Shown here: piece after piece, positions 5,989 through 43,646 of the stretch
Position numbering within the stretch: the stretch's first letter is position 1
How the letters are laid out: each line of letters begins with the position of its first letter
Source: Cyanidioschyzon merolae
Taxonomy: Eukaryota
Assembly (NCBI GenBank): GCA_000091205.1
Contig: AP006496.2
DNA length: 64,000 nt
Reading direction: 5' to 3' (one strand)
Notes under the pieces: model-generated
What the model was told of the DNA's origin: nothing
Seen by the model: the letters and a program-made list of their open reading frames with translations, nothing else
The model's database searches: none
Program-made: the position numbers and the translations under genes

Positions 5989-7589
5989 GCGCCCACTAGT
6001 CCAGACAGTTTCCAGTTTAGGAGCACCTCAGTGCCGTTGAACGCTGCGGCGTTCAGGCCTGCTGGTATGAGCGGGTACAGAACCAACGATCGTTTTCAGA
6101 GACGTTCTGGCTCGTTGGCTGATCGAATGATTCTTCCAATTTTCCGTTCGTTCAGTGAAGCAGCGCTTTTGATAGTTCATAGCAGCCAATCCTGATCAAC
6201 GTTGAAAGACTTGATGCGCTTTCTTTGTAAGTGCCTCGGAGATGATGTTACATAAAGTAAGAGGACGTTCGTAGCGGTGGATTATATACTGGGTGCAATG
6301 GGTTCTGGAACACCTGCCCAAGCACGCCCTTTTGAATCGTTTTCTGCTAGATATTCAACACAAAGAATGTTTTTGTGGATTGCGGAAAGGAGACGGAAAG
6401 ACTTTGAGATGACGGCTAGCTTGCGAAAATGCCGAAACTTCTACAAGTCTTTCATTCTTCGATTTGCACTCGGATGAGCCGCTCTTCGTGCAGTCCATAT
6501 CGTGAAGCTCGAGCATCCAGAGTAGAACTTATAAAAATGCTTGTGGGCGACGGCCTTCTCGATAACCGATTCAACTTCATACGTGCTCTGAGAAAGACTA
6601 CCAAAAAGGCCACCGTATTCGAAGAGTCCATACCGTTAACAAGCACGGTGATGAAGCGGCAGAGATCGACGAAGGAAGAAAGGGCGCCTCTATGAAAAGC
6701 CATTGCGCGTTGACCGGTACGCGATCCACTTCGGACTACAACGCGGACGCTTTATAGTCTTTGAACTCAATTCTGTTTCACAAGTGTTGCGTTGTATAGC
6801 AGCAGGTCGGAATCACGATGGAATGCACTGTGTAGATCGTAGACGGATCGCTTGTAGTATATATTCTTTAATGAACTTTGCAAGGAGGACTGCATTTTTT
6901 CCTCATTTCAGTACTAACACAGTACTCAGATAGTTGAGAGACACTGAAAGAACCAAGAACATGCGTCCCTCGCCAAAAACCGATATTCTCTAAGAATGAT
7001 TGCCGGTTGTCGTGGTAAACGACCCATTGCACACCTTCCGGGAAGGAAAAGCGACGACAGTAGCCGCCACAGGCATCTCCGTTTGTCAACAGCTCGTTCA
7101 TATTGTCCAGAAAACACTGGGATACAGTCGTAAAGAAGGTCATAGATCATTCACGGACATCTTCCACCGCAATCGCAATTACGGAATCACTGGAACGTCG
7201 CGATCGGAATGAAGTACAGGGACGTCGGCTTTCTCGTTTTAGTTGATGTGACTTGCTTCGAAGGAGACGATCGGAGCCCATCTGGGTATTCGCGGAGCAA
7301 ATAGCGCGTTGTATATCCGATCGAACTCCAAGAGAACCATGACATCATCTGTAACAGCTGCGGTGGATACATTTGGCGACATTAGTTTCGCTCGTCGAGA
7401 TGGCTCATAAAACAGCACCCATGACATGGAATCATCAAATACTTTTTCCACGACACCTGGCAATGTCCTTCCATTGGACAACGTGGCATTTCACCATTCC
7501 CCTCGAGTTCGAGTATTTGCCGATTCTATTCGGGTAGAATCCTCTCCTCGCCGACGATCGAGAGAAGAAGAAGAGGTGAGATAAACCAG

Positions 7590-24224: not shown

Positions 24225-24965
24225 ATGAGCGTTCAAGCGCAACTTGTTGGCGGGGAGTTTTGGGTCACTGACCCAGTGAGCGCACGACTGTGTTGGCAGT
24301 CGCTCATGGGGTTCGGGAAAGGCAACTTGAGCCGTAGTCGACCTGTGTACGGGGAGCTAGTCCGGGGTGCGGTCGATCACGTCCACTTGGGACGAGCGCT
24401 GCGCAGCCTGGTGCGTGCCGGGCACTTTGCAGCACGGACTGACAAGGAGGACGTGGAGCACCTGCACCTAGCTCCATTCGAAGCAGCCTACCTCGCTTTT
24501 GACGAACAATTTCTGACCGTGAAAGGTTTCGAGAACACCCAGTCACTCTGGACGTACTTCGTATCCCTACCGAAAGAGCACTTGCGACAGTATGCAGTTT
24601 ATCGAGCATATCGGCACGCAGGCTGGGCACCGCATTCCGGATGCAAGTATGGCGCGGACTTTGTACTTTACCGGTTCCGAGCGTCAGAAGGTCGTCATTC
24701 GCACGCACCGTACGCGGTTCTCGTTCGGAGTGCAAACGAGCGCATCCATCAGCGTTGGATTGCCGTCCAGAATCAGCTGAGGCTCACCAAACAAGTGGCT
24801 AAGCGCCTTGTCTACGTGGAGGTGTCCATGAGCACAGCGATGGAGCATCTCCAGCATCGCGAACGCTGGCTCCAGACCGTGTGTCTGCATGAGGTTCTCG
24901 TCGATCGCTGGACGCCATCCATTCGCACTCGTTCGAAAGAGGCAAAACAGCGTGCCGCGAAGTAG
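24225..24965 (+). CDS. tRNA-splicing endonuclease catalytic subunit (Sen2/Sen34-like)
   Basis: 'YRAYRHAGWAPHSGCKYGADFVLYRF...HAPYAVLV' matches the tRNA intron endonuclease catalytic-domain signature (Y..lr..Gw.v..G.kfG.df.lY ... Hs.y.v.v). Confidence 0.6.
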   Translation: MSVQAQLVGGEFWVTDPVSARLCWQSLMGFGKGNLSRSRPVYGELVRGAVDHVHLGRALRSLVRAGHFAARTDKEDVEHLHLAPFEAAYLAFDEQFLTVKGFENTQSLWTYFVSLPKEHLRQYAVYRAYRHAGWAPHSGCKYGADFVLYRFRASEGRHSHAPYAVLVRSANERIHQRWIAVQNQLRLTKQVAKRLVYVEVSMSTAMEHLQHRERWLQTVCLHEVLVDRWTPSIRTRSKEAKQRAAK

Positions 24966-35370: not shown

Positions 35371-35406
35371 GCAGCCGCACGCACGCACGCACGCGTAGCC
35401 TCTGCG

Positions 35407-35444
<38 letters not shown>
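35371..35444. repeat. Palindromic compound microsatellite (GCAC)n ... 13 bp ... (GTGC)n between the divergent LHC genes
   Basis: Direct read: 'gcacgcacgcacgcacgcg tagcctctgcggc gtgcgtgcgtgcgtgcgtgcgtgcgtgcgtgc'. The arms are reverse complements, so a hairpin or cruciform could form. Confidence 0.85.
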
Positions 35445-35811
35445 TCCGCGAGGGCCCCGAATACGCGCTCATCACAGGCGACCTGGAGATGACGCGCGAG
35501 CGCAGCCGCTGTGCGTGCGTGCGCTGAGCTCGGCATCATCGCCGATGCTGCCTGCTGCCTGGGAGCAGGCGCTGGAGCTGGCCTCCGAGGCGCTAGCGCC
35601 GCGAGGCGCACACAGGCACAGGTACGCACGCACACCCTGGGAGGACGCGGTGCGCCCTGGTGTGCATCGCGTCGCAGCGCTGATCGCGCAGCAGCGAGCG
35701 CACCGAGGGCTTCTTCCCCGAATCCGAGTTCCTCGCGGAACTGAGCGCCTGAGCGTTTGTGTATTGTTCGACCGCCTGGACGTCGTTCTTTTGAGCACAA
35801 TTAACATAACT

Positions 35812-36472
35812 ATGTTCGTGTGGACAAGCGCCTGGGTTGCGAAAGGACTCCCGAGAGCGGGCACCCGTCAAACGAGAGCTTGCCTGCGGCGGCAGCTGTG
35901 TATGACCAACGTTGCGAGAAGCAGTGGCAACTCGCGTTCTGTGCCCTTTGCACCAGTCCCGGAAGCAGTTCGCGAGTCGGGGCTCGCCGGCAGTGAAGCG
36001 GAGTTCGATCCCCTGATGGTAACCTCCTACCTACCAATCTCGTGGATGCGCGAGTCCGAGGTCAAGCACGGGCGCATTGCAATGCTCGCCTTCGTGGGCA
36101 CACTCGCCCAGCAGGCATACCAGTTTCCATGGTACAAGGGCGCGCCGACGACCCTAGTCGGTGCACATGATCATTTTGTGACAACGGCGTTGGCACAAAT
36201 CCTCCTCTTCACGAGTGCATTTGAAATCGCTGCCGGAGTGCCGGCAGCTATCCAGACCGTCCGCGGCTCTGGACGTCTGCCGGGCTATTAGGGTTCGAAC
36301 CGCCTGGGCCTTCTGGGGCAAAGATGAGGCCTCGCGTAAGAGGATGGAGCTCGCAGAGGTTAAGAACGGGCGCTTGGCGATGATTGCGATGCTGGCGCTC
36401 TGGCATCAGGAGGTGCTCTCCGGTGGGATGGGCGTCATCGAACAGCTCGTGAAACAGAAATTCACTCCGTGA
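35812..36472 (+). CDS. Second LHC (FCP-like) gene with a frame disruption near 36291-36310 (possible pseudogene, small intron or sequencing frameshift)
   Basis: Frame 1 gives 'FDPLMVTSY...ESEVKHGRIAMLAFVG...FEIAAGVP...GRLPGY*'. Helix 3, 'RMELAEVKNGRLAMIAMLALWHQEV...GVIEQL', continues in another frame (36215-36472). It aligns with the C-terminus of the neighbouring LHC. Confidence 0.6.
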
Positions 36473-38200: not shown

Positions 38201-39037
38201 GTGGGACTTTTTTGGCGGGGCATCTATTTCACGTGTTTGAGAAAAAAACCACAAAGAATGTTCGTGGCGCAAGCGTTTTCGCAGTTGCGCGTGCAACCGA
38301 GCAGGGTCTGCTGTAGCCGTCGACGGTCGGCGCGTTCGCTGAAAATGGCAACTTGGATTATGGCTCCAGATAACCCGGACGAACCCGACGAGCCGGGTCG
38401 ACGGGATCCGTCGCCGCGTCGGATGCCTTCGATCCCGGTGCCCCAGGTTGCAACGGACCAGGGTACGCTTGACATTTACTCTCGCTTGGCGAAGGATCGC
38501 AAGCTGCTTTTAGGTACTCAAGTGAATGATGAGGTTTGCAACCAGCTCGTCGCGCAGATGTTGTTTTTGGCACAGGAGAACCCAGAGGAGGATATTACGC
38601 TCTATATTAACTCACCGGGAGGCTCGGTGTCCGCTGGACTTGCGCTGTACGACACCATGATGTACGTACCGTGCGATGTTGCGACGGTCTGTTTCGGAAC
38701 CGCGGCGTCGATGGGTGCGTTCCTGCTGTGTGCCGGGGCTAAAGGCAAACGTCGGGCGTTGCCGCATGCGCGCATCATGATTCACCAGCCGCTCGGTGGG
38801 GCGCAAGGTCAAGCCATGGATATTGAAATTCAGGCACGCGAGATTCTCTACGTGCGGGATCTAATTAATCAGATCATGGCAGCGCAGACAGGCAAGGCGG
38901 TGGAAGAAATTGAACGGGACACTGATCGTGACTTTTTCATGAATGCCGAGGAGGCGGTAGCCTATGGTTTGATTGACGAGGTCGTGAAAACGAAGAACAT
39001 GCTCCCGTATCCGAAGAAACCATCGCTGGTGTACTGA
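38201..39037 (+). CDS. clpP: ATP-dependent Clp protease proteolytic subunit ClpP (organelle-targeted)
   Basis: '[33 protein letters not shown]', '[22 protein letters not shown]' (active-site Ser), 'MIHQPLGG' (active-site His) and '[15 protein letters not shown]'. The N-terminal ~60 aa look like a presequence. Confidence 0.85.
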
Positions 39038-39481: not shown

Positions 39482-39487
39482 AAAAAA
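39482..39487 (-). terminator. Pol III oligo-T terminator of the tRNA-like gene
   Basis: The plus strand reads 'aaaaaa' immediately after the tRNA 3' end, giving TTTTTT on the coding strand. Confidence 0.4.
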
Positions 39488-39488
39488 C

Positions 39489-39615
39489 CACGGTGGATGG
39501 GGGTCGAACCCACACGGAAGGCGCGCGTACCGCACCATCTTCTGCTCGCTGCCGTCCAGCGACGGGTCGCTAGCCGGTCCGTAGGCAGACGCCTTATCCA
39601 CTTGGCCACCACCGT
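39489..39615 (-). tRNA. Pol III tRNA-like gene: Arg(ACG)-type anticodon loop, putative 32-nt intron, long variable arm
   Basis: Minus-strand read: acceptor 'ACGGTGG' pairs perfectly with 'CCACCGT'; A box 'TGGCCAAGTGG' matches TRGCNNAGTGG exactly; anticodon stem/loop 'TCTGC CTACGGA', with the 3' strand 'GCAGA' found 32 nt later. A possible variable-arm hairpin is 'GGTGCG GTA CGCGCC'. The T arm is 'GTGGG TTCGACC CCCAT' (B box). A TTTTTT run follows the 3' end. Confidence 0.5.
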
Positions 39616-40314
39616 GTGCGCACGCGCCCTAGACGAAAGACATCTGCGATGATCTATGCAGACGCGATTCCGTCGGGAGCACAGAGAGACCATGCAGGAA
39701 ATTGCATATAAAGCGATTGCTACTGTTGGCGCGCACGGCGTGTGACCCCAGCGGTCGCCGCCCTTCCGTGTCTGTGATTTGGGGCTGGCGCTGGGGCACC
39801 GGAGGCGCGCGCGGCCACCACGCGATTGCGGCGCCCGGATCTGGATAGGGTAGCGGTGGCGGAGCGCGCTCTGGAGCCTGCAGTAGGGAGTCAGGTCGGG
39901 TCGGGCGCACCTGTAGCACCGTAAGTGAGCCTGTTGGATGAGCGATGCTTGCTGCAGTCGCTATGTTTGCCGTCATTCAGGACTGCAGGAGTAGCTTTCG
40001 GGGTAGATATGTAGAAACTGGCTCGGTCGCTTTTCAAGTAAGGAAAATTGTGTGCCTTACGGACAGAGGATGCGCGGGATCGCGTCACACGAGTATGCGC
40101 TGTCCTATCGAATGACGCTACTCCGTTATCGTTCAGGAATTGCCCGGAAAAACCTACCCTGGTGTATATATATGAAGGTGCTCTAGCCTAGCTTGAGTTT
40201 TGAATCTTATGATGCCATCGCCTCGATCCTGGCGAGAATCCATTTCCACTTGTCCTGGCTCCTGATTTTTTTCATCAAAAGTCTTCCGCGTTTCAGCAAT
40301 GCCCACGCTGATCA

Positions 40315-40790
40315 CTAAACGATTCCGTCGAAAGTTCCTTCGACGCAAACCACCGGATTCTTCCGAAGCATGAGGCATTTCCGGATGTTCATTGCGGCGT
40401 TCAAGTCTTGATACAGAGGGTGCACGCGCGCTTTCTTTCCGCAGGAATCACACCACTGCAGGCCGCTCGCCTTCGATTGCCTCTCCATCTGACGCTCGTT
40501 CAGCTTACCGTGCACCATATCGTGCATCCGGGTCTGCGTCATCCTCTCATTCCCAATCCGTTATAGCGTTCGTCCGTGCTCGTGATGCTTGTGTCTCGTA
40601 GGCAGCGCATCGACAGGAATCGTGCAGCGTCGATCCCGGCACCATTGTTGTATACGTTCCCGTCGAAGGAGCGCAAGTGCAGCCATTCCGCGTTACGGCA
40701 CATCGAGCGGCATGGACCACCCCCAAACAGCGCGATTCATCGGTGATTTCGTAATTCGCCCCATTGAGGGATTTGGTGAATGCATGCATC
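40315..40790 (-). mobile_element. TnpB/Fanzor-like remnant, copy E
   Basis: 'RQSKASGLQWCDSCGKKARVHPLYQDLNAAMNIRKCLMLRKN' keeps the CxxCG...D.NAA.NI zinc-ribbon/RuvC-III motif. Upstream, the ORF 40547-40789 reads 'NYEITDESRCLG'. Confidence 0.35.
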
Positions 40791-43151
40791 TTGCCTGCAT
40801 ACCACCGAGACCAGTTGCGACTCCAGCAAGCTTTCGTACAGTGCTGTCAGAGGTCATCAGCGTGAGCCGTTTGGACGCCCATGTATTCTCGGAGAGACGC
40901 GTGCACAGTGTGCCATGCTGCTCGGTACGATGCTCTGAGCGTTGAGATGGGCCCTGGCGCGCCGCCATTCCACTTGTTGATACGCAGAATGGGGTTTATC
41001 TTGCCCGATTCTTGATGATCACAAAGTCCCGGAAAATTTGGTCAGCGCCATCAGGTTTTTGTTCAGGTATTTGGCTACGTCCTGATGATGTAGAGGTACG
41101 GCGACGGCCGCGACGCACTGCAGACCGGATGCGACGCCCATCACGAAGCCTTCACTCCATCTACCTTGACCATTTCGAAATGCATCTCTTTGCCTGACAG
41201 GGCCTCGGATCTACCAAGTGCATCTACACTGATATCCCGTCAGACATCGAAACCCTTGTGAACTCCTTTCCATTTCTGTCCTGCAAACGAGAAATCTTGG
41301 ACGGGTTTCGCCAATGCCCTCCGTGAAGTTGTTCAAATGCTGCACAGACGCTCGCAAAGACTGGGCGTGACCCTCCGATGGGACCATACAGTACTGAACG
41401 GTCTCTATTGATATGATTAGCCTGCATCTCATAGATGCAAACCATGTCGAATAGACGCCTCAGGAAGCGAGGGCGCTCGGATTCCGGGAGCGCATCTGTT
41501 TTGCTGACGAGGCATCTATTCAGAGGCGAGCAGTAGTGCAAGATGCACGCAAGGCGGATATCACGTCCTTGCCATCTTTTGGATACAACGCTTGTCGGTC
41601 CGCGGCCGAGGGCAATGCGGCGAGCCTGGACGCTCTGAAGAAATTGTCGTTCTCACTGGTACCTCTCTTCGAAATGCGCTACCATTTCGATCTCGTTCGC
41701 CACCGCCAGCTCGCTATTTGCCTTGATCGACACCCGACGGGGCGCTTCCATCAGTACCCAGTTTCCGGGGTCAGTAAGGCGAAAGTACAACGCCAGCAAT
41801 GTGCGCCTTGTAATCCGGTCATCATTAACCCAAACACATTTTTGAGTTGTGGGCTTGGTTTGATACTTTTTGGCATATGCGCCGTACGAGTTCCGATCGC
41901 AAAGGAGGCGGAGCGACGTGTCACATTTGCTGGGAAGAATGTGCACAAATCCTGGATCTTACTATCAGTCCGTATTGCGCCTTCTGTCCAGATCATCCGT
42001 TACATCGTCGCAAGAGTCTTTGATTGACAAATTCCAGAGGAAGGAGGGCAGCTCGCTGTCCTTCGTCCAGACCCCATACAAACAGTTTCGCAACGAGATG
42101 TTTGTCAAGGAGAGTGAAGCGAAGCGAGCCTTCCTCAAATTGGAAGCTCCGCAATCCCTGGTGACGTGCTGCATCCTTTTTTGTGCCGCGGAGGCGAACG
42201 ATTGGTCTGTTGGTCCATGGGCGGCAAATGGTGTCTGGCGACAGAGAGCACGCCTTCGAATGGATCGAACCAGGGAGAACAGTCTGGCACGAACACCAGT
42301 TCGACCCGAATCCGAGTTGCGTATTCCTTGATCTCATCTCTACGAACAGCGGTTTGCCTCTCCCGGAGCACCTACATGCAGGCCTACCATTTTTTCCCGA
42401 GACATGTCTCGTCGAGTGAAACGAAAACTGTCGCTCCTTTACCAAGCTTTCGCGTTCCAGTACGAAATCGATCGCAAGTCATCGAATGCACGATGATCTC
42501 GCAAAGACGAGTGCTTTTTTCTTGGCTCATCCGTGTCTTCATCACCGTCCGTACGAACTGTACGAAAACGTGCCATTCCGGTGCTTCTTTCGCAGTATTT
42601 CATGGAGAATGTATGAAGTGGAATGGATTGACGAGGAGGCAGTCGTTACGACGGACTTTAAGTTCCGTATCGGGTGCACGACGTTCAGGGTAAGGACAAC
42701 GAGCGGGCTGGTTCATGCACCTGCTGACAACAGCGTGACTAGCTTGTCATCGTAAGGCCGTTTACTGCAAGCTAGTGGTGACAGCATCACGTCTTTCCAC
42801 GACCATTCTTCAGTCTACTAGATCCACTTTTTTTGTCGAATGCCTGCGAGAAAAACGAACAAAAAAGTAATGTTTGCATACCTGCTCCAGAATTCACTGC
42901 TCTGAGTATTCCACGGGTTGCGGGTGCTGGTCGTGGGTGGACCTTCCCGAGCCCGCGTGTTTTGGACACATTCCTGCCCGCGTTTCGACGGCGGCAGTGC
43001 TGTGAGGCCGTGCGCTGCACCCTCATCCCATGTGAAACAACGCTGCACCCTGTACCACGAGGCACGACGGAAACACGATCCCAGTCCACAGATGACAGCT
43101 TTGCGGGATTCGTGAACGGTACGCTCAAGCCGCGGGGCTTTTTAGAGAGCC

Positions 43152-43646
43152 TTACAGCCAGGCTGGTGGATTTTCCGGTATCCGCACGAGGTCGACATCG
43201 AAGAGTTCAATGAACTGTTCGTTGAGAAGGCGCACTTTTCCTCCGACGTATCGGCGATACTCCTCCAGAACAGAGGTCAAGTTCCACTGCTGGAGCTTGC
43301 GCAAGCAACCTATCACGGTTCCCGTCCGATGTCGACCAAGGTTACACATAACGTGGAGCGGGTAGTTTTCCGTGTCCAGAATAACGTCCAGCGCAGCGAG
43401 CACAACCTCTTCAGAGATCGGCATCCAAGGTGTCTGATCGCTGTCCCAGCCAACAGGAACGAGTTCGATGTCGTGATCGTCTAGAAAATTGAGAAACTGC
43501 GGCGGGAGCTCATCCGGTGAGAGGTATAGCACCTTGCGCAAGTTCAACTTTTCCAGGAACGGGTAGTTTAGCTCGTTTGGCACCCCCGAGCGGTAGAGGT
43601 CCTCCTCGACCCAGCTAAAGTTTATCGGAGGTATAAAGCTGCCCAT
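43152..43646 (-). CDS. Plant-and-fungi atypical dual-specificity phosphatase (PFA-DSP/Siw14-like)
   Basis: 'LYRSGVPNELNYPFLEKLNLRKVLYLSPD' and the catalytic P-loop 'HVMCNLGRHRTGTVIGCLRK' (Cx5R), at the family's typical ~165-aa size. Confidence 0.75.
   Translation of the reverse strand: MGSFIPPINFSWVEEDLYRSGVPNELNYPFLEKLNLRKVLYLSPDELPPQFLNFLDDHDIELVPVGWDSDQTPWMPISEEVVLAALDVILDTENYPLHVMCNLGRHRTGTVIGCLRKLQQWNLTSVLEEYRRYVGGKVRLLNEQFIELFDVDLVRIPENPPAWL

Follow-up and report, generated by a model that had tools for sequence, protein, structure and literature searches.

The subject of this analysis is a transfer RNA (tRNA) gene in a 64,000 nucleotide (nt) stretch of the Cyanidioschyzon merolae 10D genome (contig AP006496.2 of assembly GCA_000091205.1), which is referred to in full as the window. 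The data very strongly suggest that positions 39489-39615 (minus strand) are an ordinary, single-copy, nuclear class-I tRNA-Arg(ACG) gene with two introns: one of 32 nt at the canonical position 37/38 and one of 22 nt that interrupts the variable loop at 47/48. A first-pass annotation, made from the sequence alone, had described positions 39482-39615 as a non-canonical tRNA-like gene with an Arg(ACG) anticodon loop, a 32 nt intron and a class-II-like long variable arm. It had offered three explanations, namely an unusual tRNA, a tRNA with a second intron, or an element resembling a tRNA-derived short interspersed nuclear element (SINE). The second of these is favoured by the bulge-helix-bulge (BHB) splicing motif and by the orthologues, and the 'variable-arm hairpin' is the inner helix of that motif.

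Detection and layout of the tRNA-Arg(ACG) gene

The gene is 127 nt long, from position 1 to the discriminator base G73, and was detected with the Rfam covariance model RF00005 and with ARAGORN in intron mode. The covariance model aligns end to end (model positions 1-71) with a score of 41.7 bits (E = 2e-5 for the whole window), above the gathering score of 29, and there are only two insertions in the alignment, of which the one in the anticodon loop has 37 nt and the one in the variable region 24 nt. ARAGORN identifies the gene as tRNA-Arg(acg) in intron mode and reports zero tRNA genes in the window in default mode. These results agree with the first-pass reading of an RNA polymerase III-type tRNA gene whose anticodon loop is that of Arg(ACG).

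If the precursor is indexed 1-127 (window coordinate = 39616 minus index), the minus strand reads ACGGUGG-UG-GCCA-AGUGGAUA-AGGC-G-UCUGC-CUACGG-(32 nt)-A-GCAGA-AGAU-(22 nt)-U-GUGGG-UUCGACC-CCCAU-CCACCGU-G. Exon 1 (39579-39615, tRNA positions 1-37) contains the 5' strand of the acceptor stem, the D arm GCCA/AGGC with its 8 nt loop, and UCUGC followed by CUACGG. The anticodon loop C-U-A-C-G-G...A gives the anticodon ACG (39580-39582), which is that of an Arg tRNA. Exon 2 (39537-39546) has 10 nt and consists of A38, GCAGA and the variable-loop bases AGAU (positions 44-47). Exon 3 (39489-39514) supplies U48, the T stem GUGGG/CCCAU with the T loop UUCGACC, the CCACCGU strand and the discriminator G; CCA is not encoded by the gene.

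All of the individual features listed in the first-pass annotation were recovered. The acceptor stem ACGGTGG/CCACCGT forms 7/7 pairs, the A-box-like TGGCCAAGTGG and the B-box-like GGTTCGACCCC both lie where they had been placed, and the T arm and the TTTTTT run are present. TCTGC and GCAGA are separated by CTACGG, 32 nt and an A, in agreement with an intron of that length at the canonical position, and the count of 27 nt between GCAGA and the T stem was correct. The hairpin described within those 27 nt also exists, with a loop of 5 nt (GGTGCG-GTACG-CGCGCC) and not, as had been written, of 3 nt (GGTGCG-GTA-CGCGCC).

The T6 run (39482-39487, minus strand) starts 2 nt past the discriminator, with one G between, and on its sequence is probably the RNA polymerase III terminator. 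There is also a T-run downstream of the tRNA gene in Cyanidiococcus and in Cyanidium, and Soma et al. (2013, Sci Rep 3:2321, PMC3728597) report that T-stretches follow the majority of the tRNA genes of C. merolae.

Two exon probes of 21-24 nt each occur once in the window (0 expected). Rfam E-value and B-box pattern searches of the window for further disrupted or permuted tRNAs returned only coding-region matches and two weak non-tRNA hits. The B-box-like sequence GGTTCGAACCC at 36291-36301 belongs to an Lhcr coding region and not to a tRNA.

The 22 nt insertion carries a strict BHB motif

A BHB motif was defined as a 4 bp helix (H) with a 3 nt bulge 3' of each of its strands, a cut after the second base of each bulge, and flanking helices h and h'. 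The insertion in the variable region was tested at the 11 splice-site pairs that leave a variable loop of 4-5 nt and an intact T stem. One of the 11 pairs is strict, with cuts after U79 and after G101. Its central helix pairs G74-A75-A76-G77 (GAAG, 39539-39542, tRNA positions 42-45) with C96-U97-U98-C99 (CUUC, 39517-39520) in 4/4 positions, and the two 3 nt bulges are A78-U79/G80 (39536-39538) and C100-G101/U102 (39514-39516), where the slash marks the cut. The inner helix h' (39521-39535) is formed by G81-G85 (GUGCG, 39531-39535) and C91-C95 (CGCGC, 39521-39525), 5 bp around the loop GUACG. When the 22 nt insertion was shuffled, such a motif arose in 0.12% of 100,000 trials (p = 0.0012), and the same test on the Cyanidiococcus orthologue gave 0.03% (p = 0.0003). 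Because a strict motif is found at a single one of the allowed pairs, we place intron 2 (39515-39536, minus strand) between positions 47 and 48, with the hairpin as a helix of the splicing motif.

For C. merolae the intron 2 motif has a local folding energy of -9.2 kcal/mol, against -11.0 kcal/mol for Cyanidiococcus. In Cyanidiococcus the BHB structure is the local minimum-energy fold and is also found in the global fold. Intron 2 is bounded by a strict BHB (H 4/4, 3 nt bulges, h' of 5-6 bp), and the motif of intron 1, described below, is a relaxed one. The two can be drawn together if the anticodon stem keeps 3 bp.

Comparison with orthologous genes

The gene order Lhcr-Lhcr-ClpP-tRNA (minus strand)-phosphatase is common to C. 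merolae, Cyanidiococcus yangmingshanensis (locus L003) and a Cyanidium caldarium assembly (locus L002). The Cyanidiococcus orthologue (L003, 7212-7338, minus strand) scores 41.7 bits in a local search, and ARAGORN in intron mode wrongly calls its precursor Asp. Rfam in gathering mode, run on 13 loci (97 kb), lost this gene because of its speed filters, which can drop doubly interrupted tRNA genes.

No exon position differs between C. merolae and Cyanidiococcus, and each intron has the same length in the two, but 20 of the 54 intron positions differ and the flanks outside the tRNA gene are mostly unalignable. Six of the differences (hand count) fall within the 22 positions of intron 2: G80, the third bulge base, is changed to C, four loop bases are replaced, and G94 is changed to A. 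The last of these turns U82.G94 into a U-A pair, and the inner helix of Cyanidiococcus has 6 bp. GAAG and CUUC are unchanged, the two 3 nt bulges are retained, and the motif is unbroken. Across both introns, every change lies in a hairpin loop, at one bulge base, or converts U.G to U-A, and none breaks a motif.

This comparison bears on the exact position of the second intron. Judged from C. merolae alone, a plausible product results from any of five cut registers, and the intron might be real but lie 1-4 nt further 3', at 48/49 to 51/52, at or inside the T stem, so that position 48 would be G in C. merolae and C in Cyanidiococcus. The trinucleotide GUG at index 81-83 is repeated at 103-105, and four registers lead to the same product, AGAUG-GUGGG, which ARAGORN accepts. 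Additionally, C48 would give a standard G15-C48 pair in Cyanidiococcus, and Soma et al. count one T-stem intron besides one variable-arm intron. However, none of these registers is strict: either the central helix has at most 3/4 pairs or the inner helix is short. The mature tRNAs of the two species would differ at position 48, at a place where the sequence otherwise behaves like an intron, whereas the 47/48 cut gives identical mature tRNAs in C. merolae and Cyanidiococcus. In C. merolae, G48 opposite G15 would also be a purine-purine 15-48 pair, which goes against textbook tRNA structure. We therefore regard a cut further 3' as unlikely.

The Cyanidium orthologue (L002, 7067-7180, minus strand; 50.4 bits) is also an Arg(ACG) gene. 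It has one intron, of 40 nt at 37/38, and a plain 5 nt variable loop, AGGUC, without any insertion. The spliced C. merolae and Cyanidium tRNAs differ at 24 of 74 aligned positions. Between these two distinct sequences, 7/21 stem pairs are changed on both sides and are still paired, and one further Cyanidium change repairs the A13.A22 mismatch of C. merolae. The compensatory pairs were counted on an alignment registered by hand; MAFFT misplaced the D-loop gap. The seven compensatory changes, together with the A13.A22 repair, speak strongly for selection acting on the class-I cloverleaf in its spliced form. The distribution of the 47/48 intron reflects either a gain in the lineage of Cyanidioschyzon and Cyanidiococcus or a loss in Cyanidium. 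As an outgroup, Galdieria did not decide between the two, its ClpP neighbourhood being non-syntenic and tRNA-free.

The orthologues also speak to the long variable arm of the first-pass annotation, that is, to a mature tRNA-Arg which would retain the 22 nt as a class-II-like extra arm (compare the nematode nev-tRNAs) and from which only the 37/38 intron would be spliced. When intron 1 alone is removed in silico, ARAGORN in default mode does accept the sequence, modelling the remainder as an extra arm in a 97 nt tRNA-Arg. The hairpin is stable and is part of the minimum-energy fold, and the D arm GCCA/AGGC, with its 3 bp stem, resembles the D arms of Ser and Leu tRNAs. In class II tRNAs no more than about 2 unpaired bases lie on either side of the variable-arm stem. 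Here 4 nt on the 5' side and 6 nt on the 3' side are unpaired, and the anticodon ACG lies outside the Leu/Ser/Tyr/Sec identities of the class. A retained arm would leave the conserved CUUC/GAAG 4 bp helix and its two 3 nt bulges unexplained. Moreover, the insertion diverges as the bona fide intron does while the exons are invariant, and the orthologue in Cyanidium has the plain class-I form. In its anticodon arm and in the AGAU at the start of its variable loop, the C. merolae gene agrees with typical eukaryotic Arg(ACG) tRNAs. Taken together, the data make a retained arm very improbable. A Ser-tRNA ancestry, considered on account of the Ser-like D arm, was rejected on the same fit of the anticodon arm and variable loop to typical eukaryotic Arg(ACG) tRNAs.

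Copies of the locus were also sought in environmental sequence. A metagenome scan for diverged orthologues found only C. merolae-like copies of the same locus; the five metagenome matches and all environmental (Logan) contigs checked are 99.3-99.7% identical to it over 3 kb. It has been proposed that the gene could be a SINE-like repeat, and a tRNA pseudogene or tRNA-derived repeat of this kind would lack a decoding function. Two insertions that defeat a standard tRNA scan and a moderate Rfam score are in keeping with such a view. A SINE would be expected in many dispersed copies with a tRNA-unrelated tail, but there is one copy in the 64 kb window, and the environmental matches all represent one locus, whose position is syntenic across the three genera. 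Between C. merolae and Cyanidiococcus the exons agree at 100% and the flanks cannot be aligned, and the seven compensatory pair changes relative to the Cyanidium gene again argue for function. According to Soma et al., C. merolae has only 43 tRNA genes; this anticodon would be needed for the CGN codons. The likelihood that the gene is a pseudogene or a repeat is therefore close to nil.

Within the tRNA gene, the sole variant among the environmental contigs is U58 to A, in the intron 1 hairpin (L006, about 4290). The base that follows the discriminator varies between G and C (trailers of L006, L009 and L015), and the exons are invariant.

The intron at position 37/38

Intron 1 (39547-39578, minus strand; index 38-69) was delimited with the Rfam 37 nt loop insertion and the BHB scan. 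The C. merolae sequence by itself leaves the junction uncertain by one A; the Cyanidiococcus intron begins with C, and for this reason the junction was fixed at 37/38. Its BHB is relaxed: the central helix has 3/4 pairs (C32-G67, U33-A66, A34.C65 and C35-G64), h is the 5 bp anticodon stem, h' is a single pair, and the 3' bulge, C68-G69/A70, has 3 nt. A relaxed motif is normal for 37/38 introns. By hand count, Cyanidiococcus departs from it at 14 of the 32 positions but retains the 3' GGCAGC.

A34 lies opposite C (39581-39584 with 39549-39552) in C. merolae, Cyanidiococcus and Cyanidium despite their diverged introns; these represent only two independent lineages, hence this conservation is not significant. 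It is conceivable, but rather doubtful, that A34 is converted to inosine on the precursor. The resulting I34-C pair would give a perfect 4 bp helix, and excision of the last intron would then be licensed by anticodon editing, which would couple the two processes.

The spliced product and its proposed processing

Removal of both introns in silico gives a 73 nt tRNA-Arg(acg) that ARAGORN recognizes in default mode. This molecule forms a canonical cloverleaf whose anticodon loop has 7 nt and contains U33; 20/21 stem pairs are standard, the exception being 13-22 (A.A), and the variable loop after the 47/48 cut is AGAUU. The two introns, of 32 and 22 nt, are un-nested and within the published range of 11-69 nt.

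We suggest the following course of events. RNA polymerase III would transcribe a single precursor, probably from an upstream TATA-like element, and would stop at T6. RNase P and RNase Z would trim the ends and CCA would be added. The tRNA-splicing endonuclease (cmSen2, cmSen34 and cmSen54) would cut inside the 3 nt bulges of the BHB motif of each intron, and a tRNA ligase would join the three exons. By analogy with the published C. merolae cases, intron 2 would probably go first; its removal would free the full anticodon stem, so that intron 1 could be recognized, probably last. A34 would be expected to be deaminated to inosine, and the tRNA would then read CGU, CGC and CGA. In the cases described by Soma et al., splicing starts at the strong ectopic motifs (-10.9 to -11.2 kcal/mol), and the last intron to leave is always the one at 37/38. 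The energies of the intron 2 motif in the two species are comparable to those of these strict, early-processed motifs.

Several points weigh against a gene with introns at 37/38 and 47/48. An unconstrained BHB scan finds dozens of chance motifs in this GC-rich RNA, which is why the position-constrained shuffle test was adopted; outside the constrained position the motif is not significant. Cuts 1-4 bases further 3' also yield a valid tRNA in C. merolae alone, with G48 and not U48. In the same species the hairpin extended by G80-C96, at -12.1 kcal/mol, beats the BHB fold at -9.2 kcal/mol. The central helix of intron 2 uses positions 42 and 43, so that two anticodon-stem pairs must open, and the outer helix h is absent from its BHB (HBh' type). 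The central helix of intron 1 contains the A34.C mismatch. Soma et al. count a single variable-arm intron, which may or may not be intron 2. Finally, the splicing of the precursor, like its transcription, the order of intron removal and the modification of A34, is inferred from the DNA.

Relation to other disrupted tRNA genes

Eukaryotic tRNA introns were long believed to be confined to position 37/38, and an intron in a tRNA with A34 (inosine) is unusual among model eukaryotes. C. merolae is the best-studied exception to the 37/38-only rule, and the gene described here is a clean example. Of the 43 C. merolae tRNA genes, 27 are interrupted according to Soma et al., by a total of 42 introns; nine genes have two introns each. 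Seventeen introns are at 37/38, one is in a variable arm and one in a T stem; they are 11-69 nt long and are spliced through BHB motifs. Genes of this kind were already published for the C. merolae genome in 2013, and the word 'non-canonical' is apt in relation to other eukaryotes but describes the norm for this species (PMC3728597). Soma et al. tested the splicing of Asn, Phe, Ile and Gly genes, with Arg(ACG) not among them. They consider the anticodon repertoire of C. merolae to be sufficient, and 'ACG' is absent from their main text.

The disrupted tRNA genes that Soma et al. describe in the same genome, for example tRNA-Phe(GAA) with introns in the D stem and at 37/38, share with the present gene two un-nested introns, a relaxed 37/38 motif together with a strong ectopic BHB (about -10 kcal/mol), a downstream T-stretch and an upstream TATA-like element, for which the present gene has a candidate. 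There is no difference of substance; the missing outer helix and the overlap with two anticodon-stem pairs are particulars of the present gene.

In Thermofilum pendens an intron is known from the variable loop (Kjems et al., 1989, cited in PMC3978253). With the tRNA genes of archaea (Thermoproteales/Crenarchaeota) that have more than one BHB intron or non-canonical ones, our gene shares a variable-region intron bounded by a 4 bp helix and 3 nt bulges, and a position set by a local RNA motif and not by the distance from the tRNA body. In contrast with these, it is a eukaryotic nuclear gene and the endonuclease is of the Sen2/Sen34/Sen54 type. Soma et al. found no sequence similarity between archaeal and C. 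merolae introns.

Intron 1 resembles the introns of canonical yeast and human pre-tRNAs, which are cut by a ruler mechanism, in its position at 37/38, in a C32-G pair three bases before the 3' splice site, in the 3 nt bulge at the 3' site and in a relaxed central helix, whereas a second intron outside the anticodon loop sets the gene apart from them. With class II tRNAs (Leu, Ser, bacterial Tyr and Sec) and the nematode nev-tRNAs it shares a stem-loop between the anticodon and T arms. It differs from these in its Arg anticodon, the long unpaired flanks, the BHB geometry, the intron-like evolution of the insertion and a Cyanidium orthologue without it.

The case shows that a splicing motif can masquerade as an extra tRNA arm and that standard tRNA finders miss or mis-model such genes. 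What the present analysis adds is the assignment of the 47/48 junction, the conservation of both introns and their motifs in Cyanidiococcus, the absence of the ectopic intron from the syntenic Cyanidium gene, and a conserved upstream block. The presence of the intron in Cyanidioschyzon and Cyanidiococcus and its absence from Cyanidium could seed a study of ectopic tRNA intron gain and loss in eukaryotes.

The upstream region and neighbouring genes

The upstream flank contains a 20 nt block, ATCGCTTTATATGCAATTTC (39698-39717, minus strand; -102 to -83), which recurs without change in Cyanidiococcus (L003, about 7421-7440). The block occurs once in the window and is the sole long invariant stretch in a flank that is otherwise unalignable between the two species. 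Soma et al. (2013) propose that transcription of C. merolae tRNA genes depends on an upstream TATA-like sequence. By analogy, ATCGCTTTATATGCAATTTC is a candidate for such an RNA polymerase III promoter element, though it would be unusually distant. The two species also have the pentanucleotide CGCAC in common immediately before position +1.

An open reading frame (ORF) on the plus strand at 24225-24965 encodes a tRNA-splicing endonuclease catalytic subunit of 246 aa (Pfam PF01974, tRNA_int_endo, E = 5e-16). cmSen2 is CMN231C, also of 246 aa (PMC3728597), and the ORF is most likely this gene, given that its size and locus neighbourhood fit. The location of a Sen2-type gene 14.6 kb from the tRNA gene is most probably a coincidence.

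The proteins encoded next to the tRNA gene have exact matches in C. merolae 10D: the neighbouring Lhcr antenna protein matches BAM81326, ClpP matches BAM81327 (ORF 38201-39037, listed from an upstream GTG) and the OCA1-like phosphatase (43152-43646) matches BAM81328. The ClpP stop, at 39037, is 452 bp from the 3' end of the tRNA, in line with the earlier estimate of about 450 bp. GC content is 53-60%. The spacer between the tRNA gene and the phosphatase gene (39720-43150) is about 3.5 kb in C. merolae; in Cyanidiococcus and Cyanidium it measures about 0.3-0.4 kb. The additional sequence is slightly lower in GC, and searches of it for Pfam-matching ORFs, Rfam hits and tandem repeats found none.

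The second Lhcr gene (plus strand, ORF 35413-36291) changes frame at 36291-36311 and continues to about 36472. The three environmental C. merolae-like contigs compared there (L004, L006 and L009) differ from the window by three indels and two substitutions within 21 bp, and in L004 and several other contigs Lhcr is one continuous ORF of 318 aa. The frame change is either a local reference error or a lesion specific to 10D. Between the two divergently transcribed Lhcr genes lies a (TGCG)n microsatellite of about 11 copies (35403-35444), which accounts for weak mir-3149 Rfam hits on both strands at 35375-35430.

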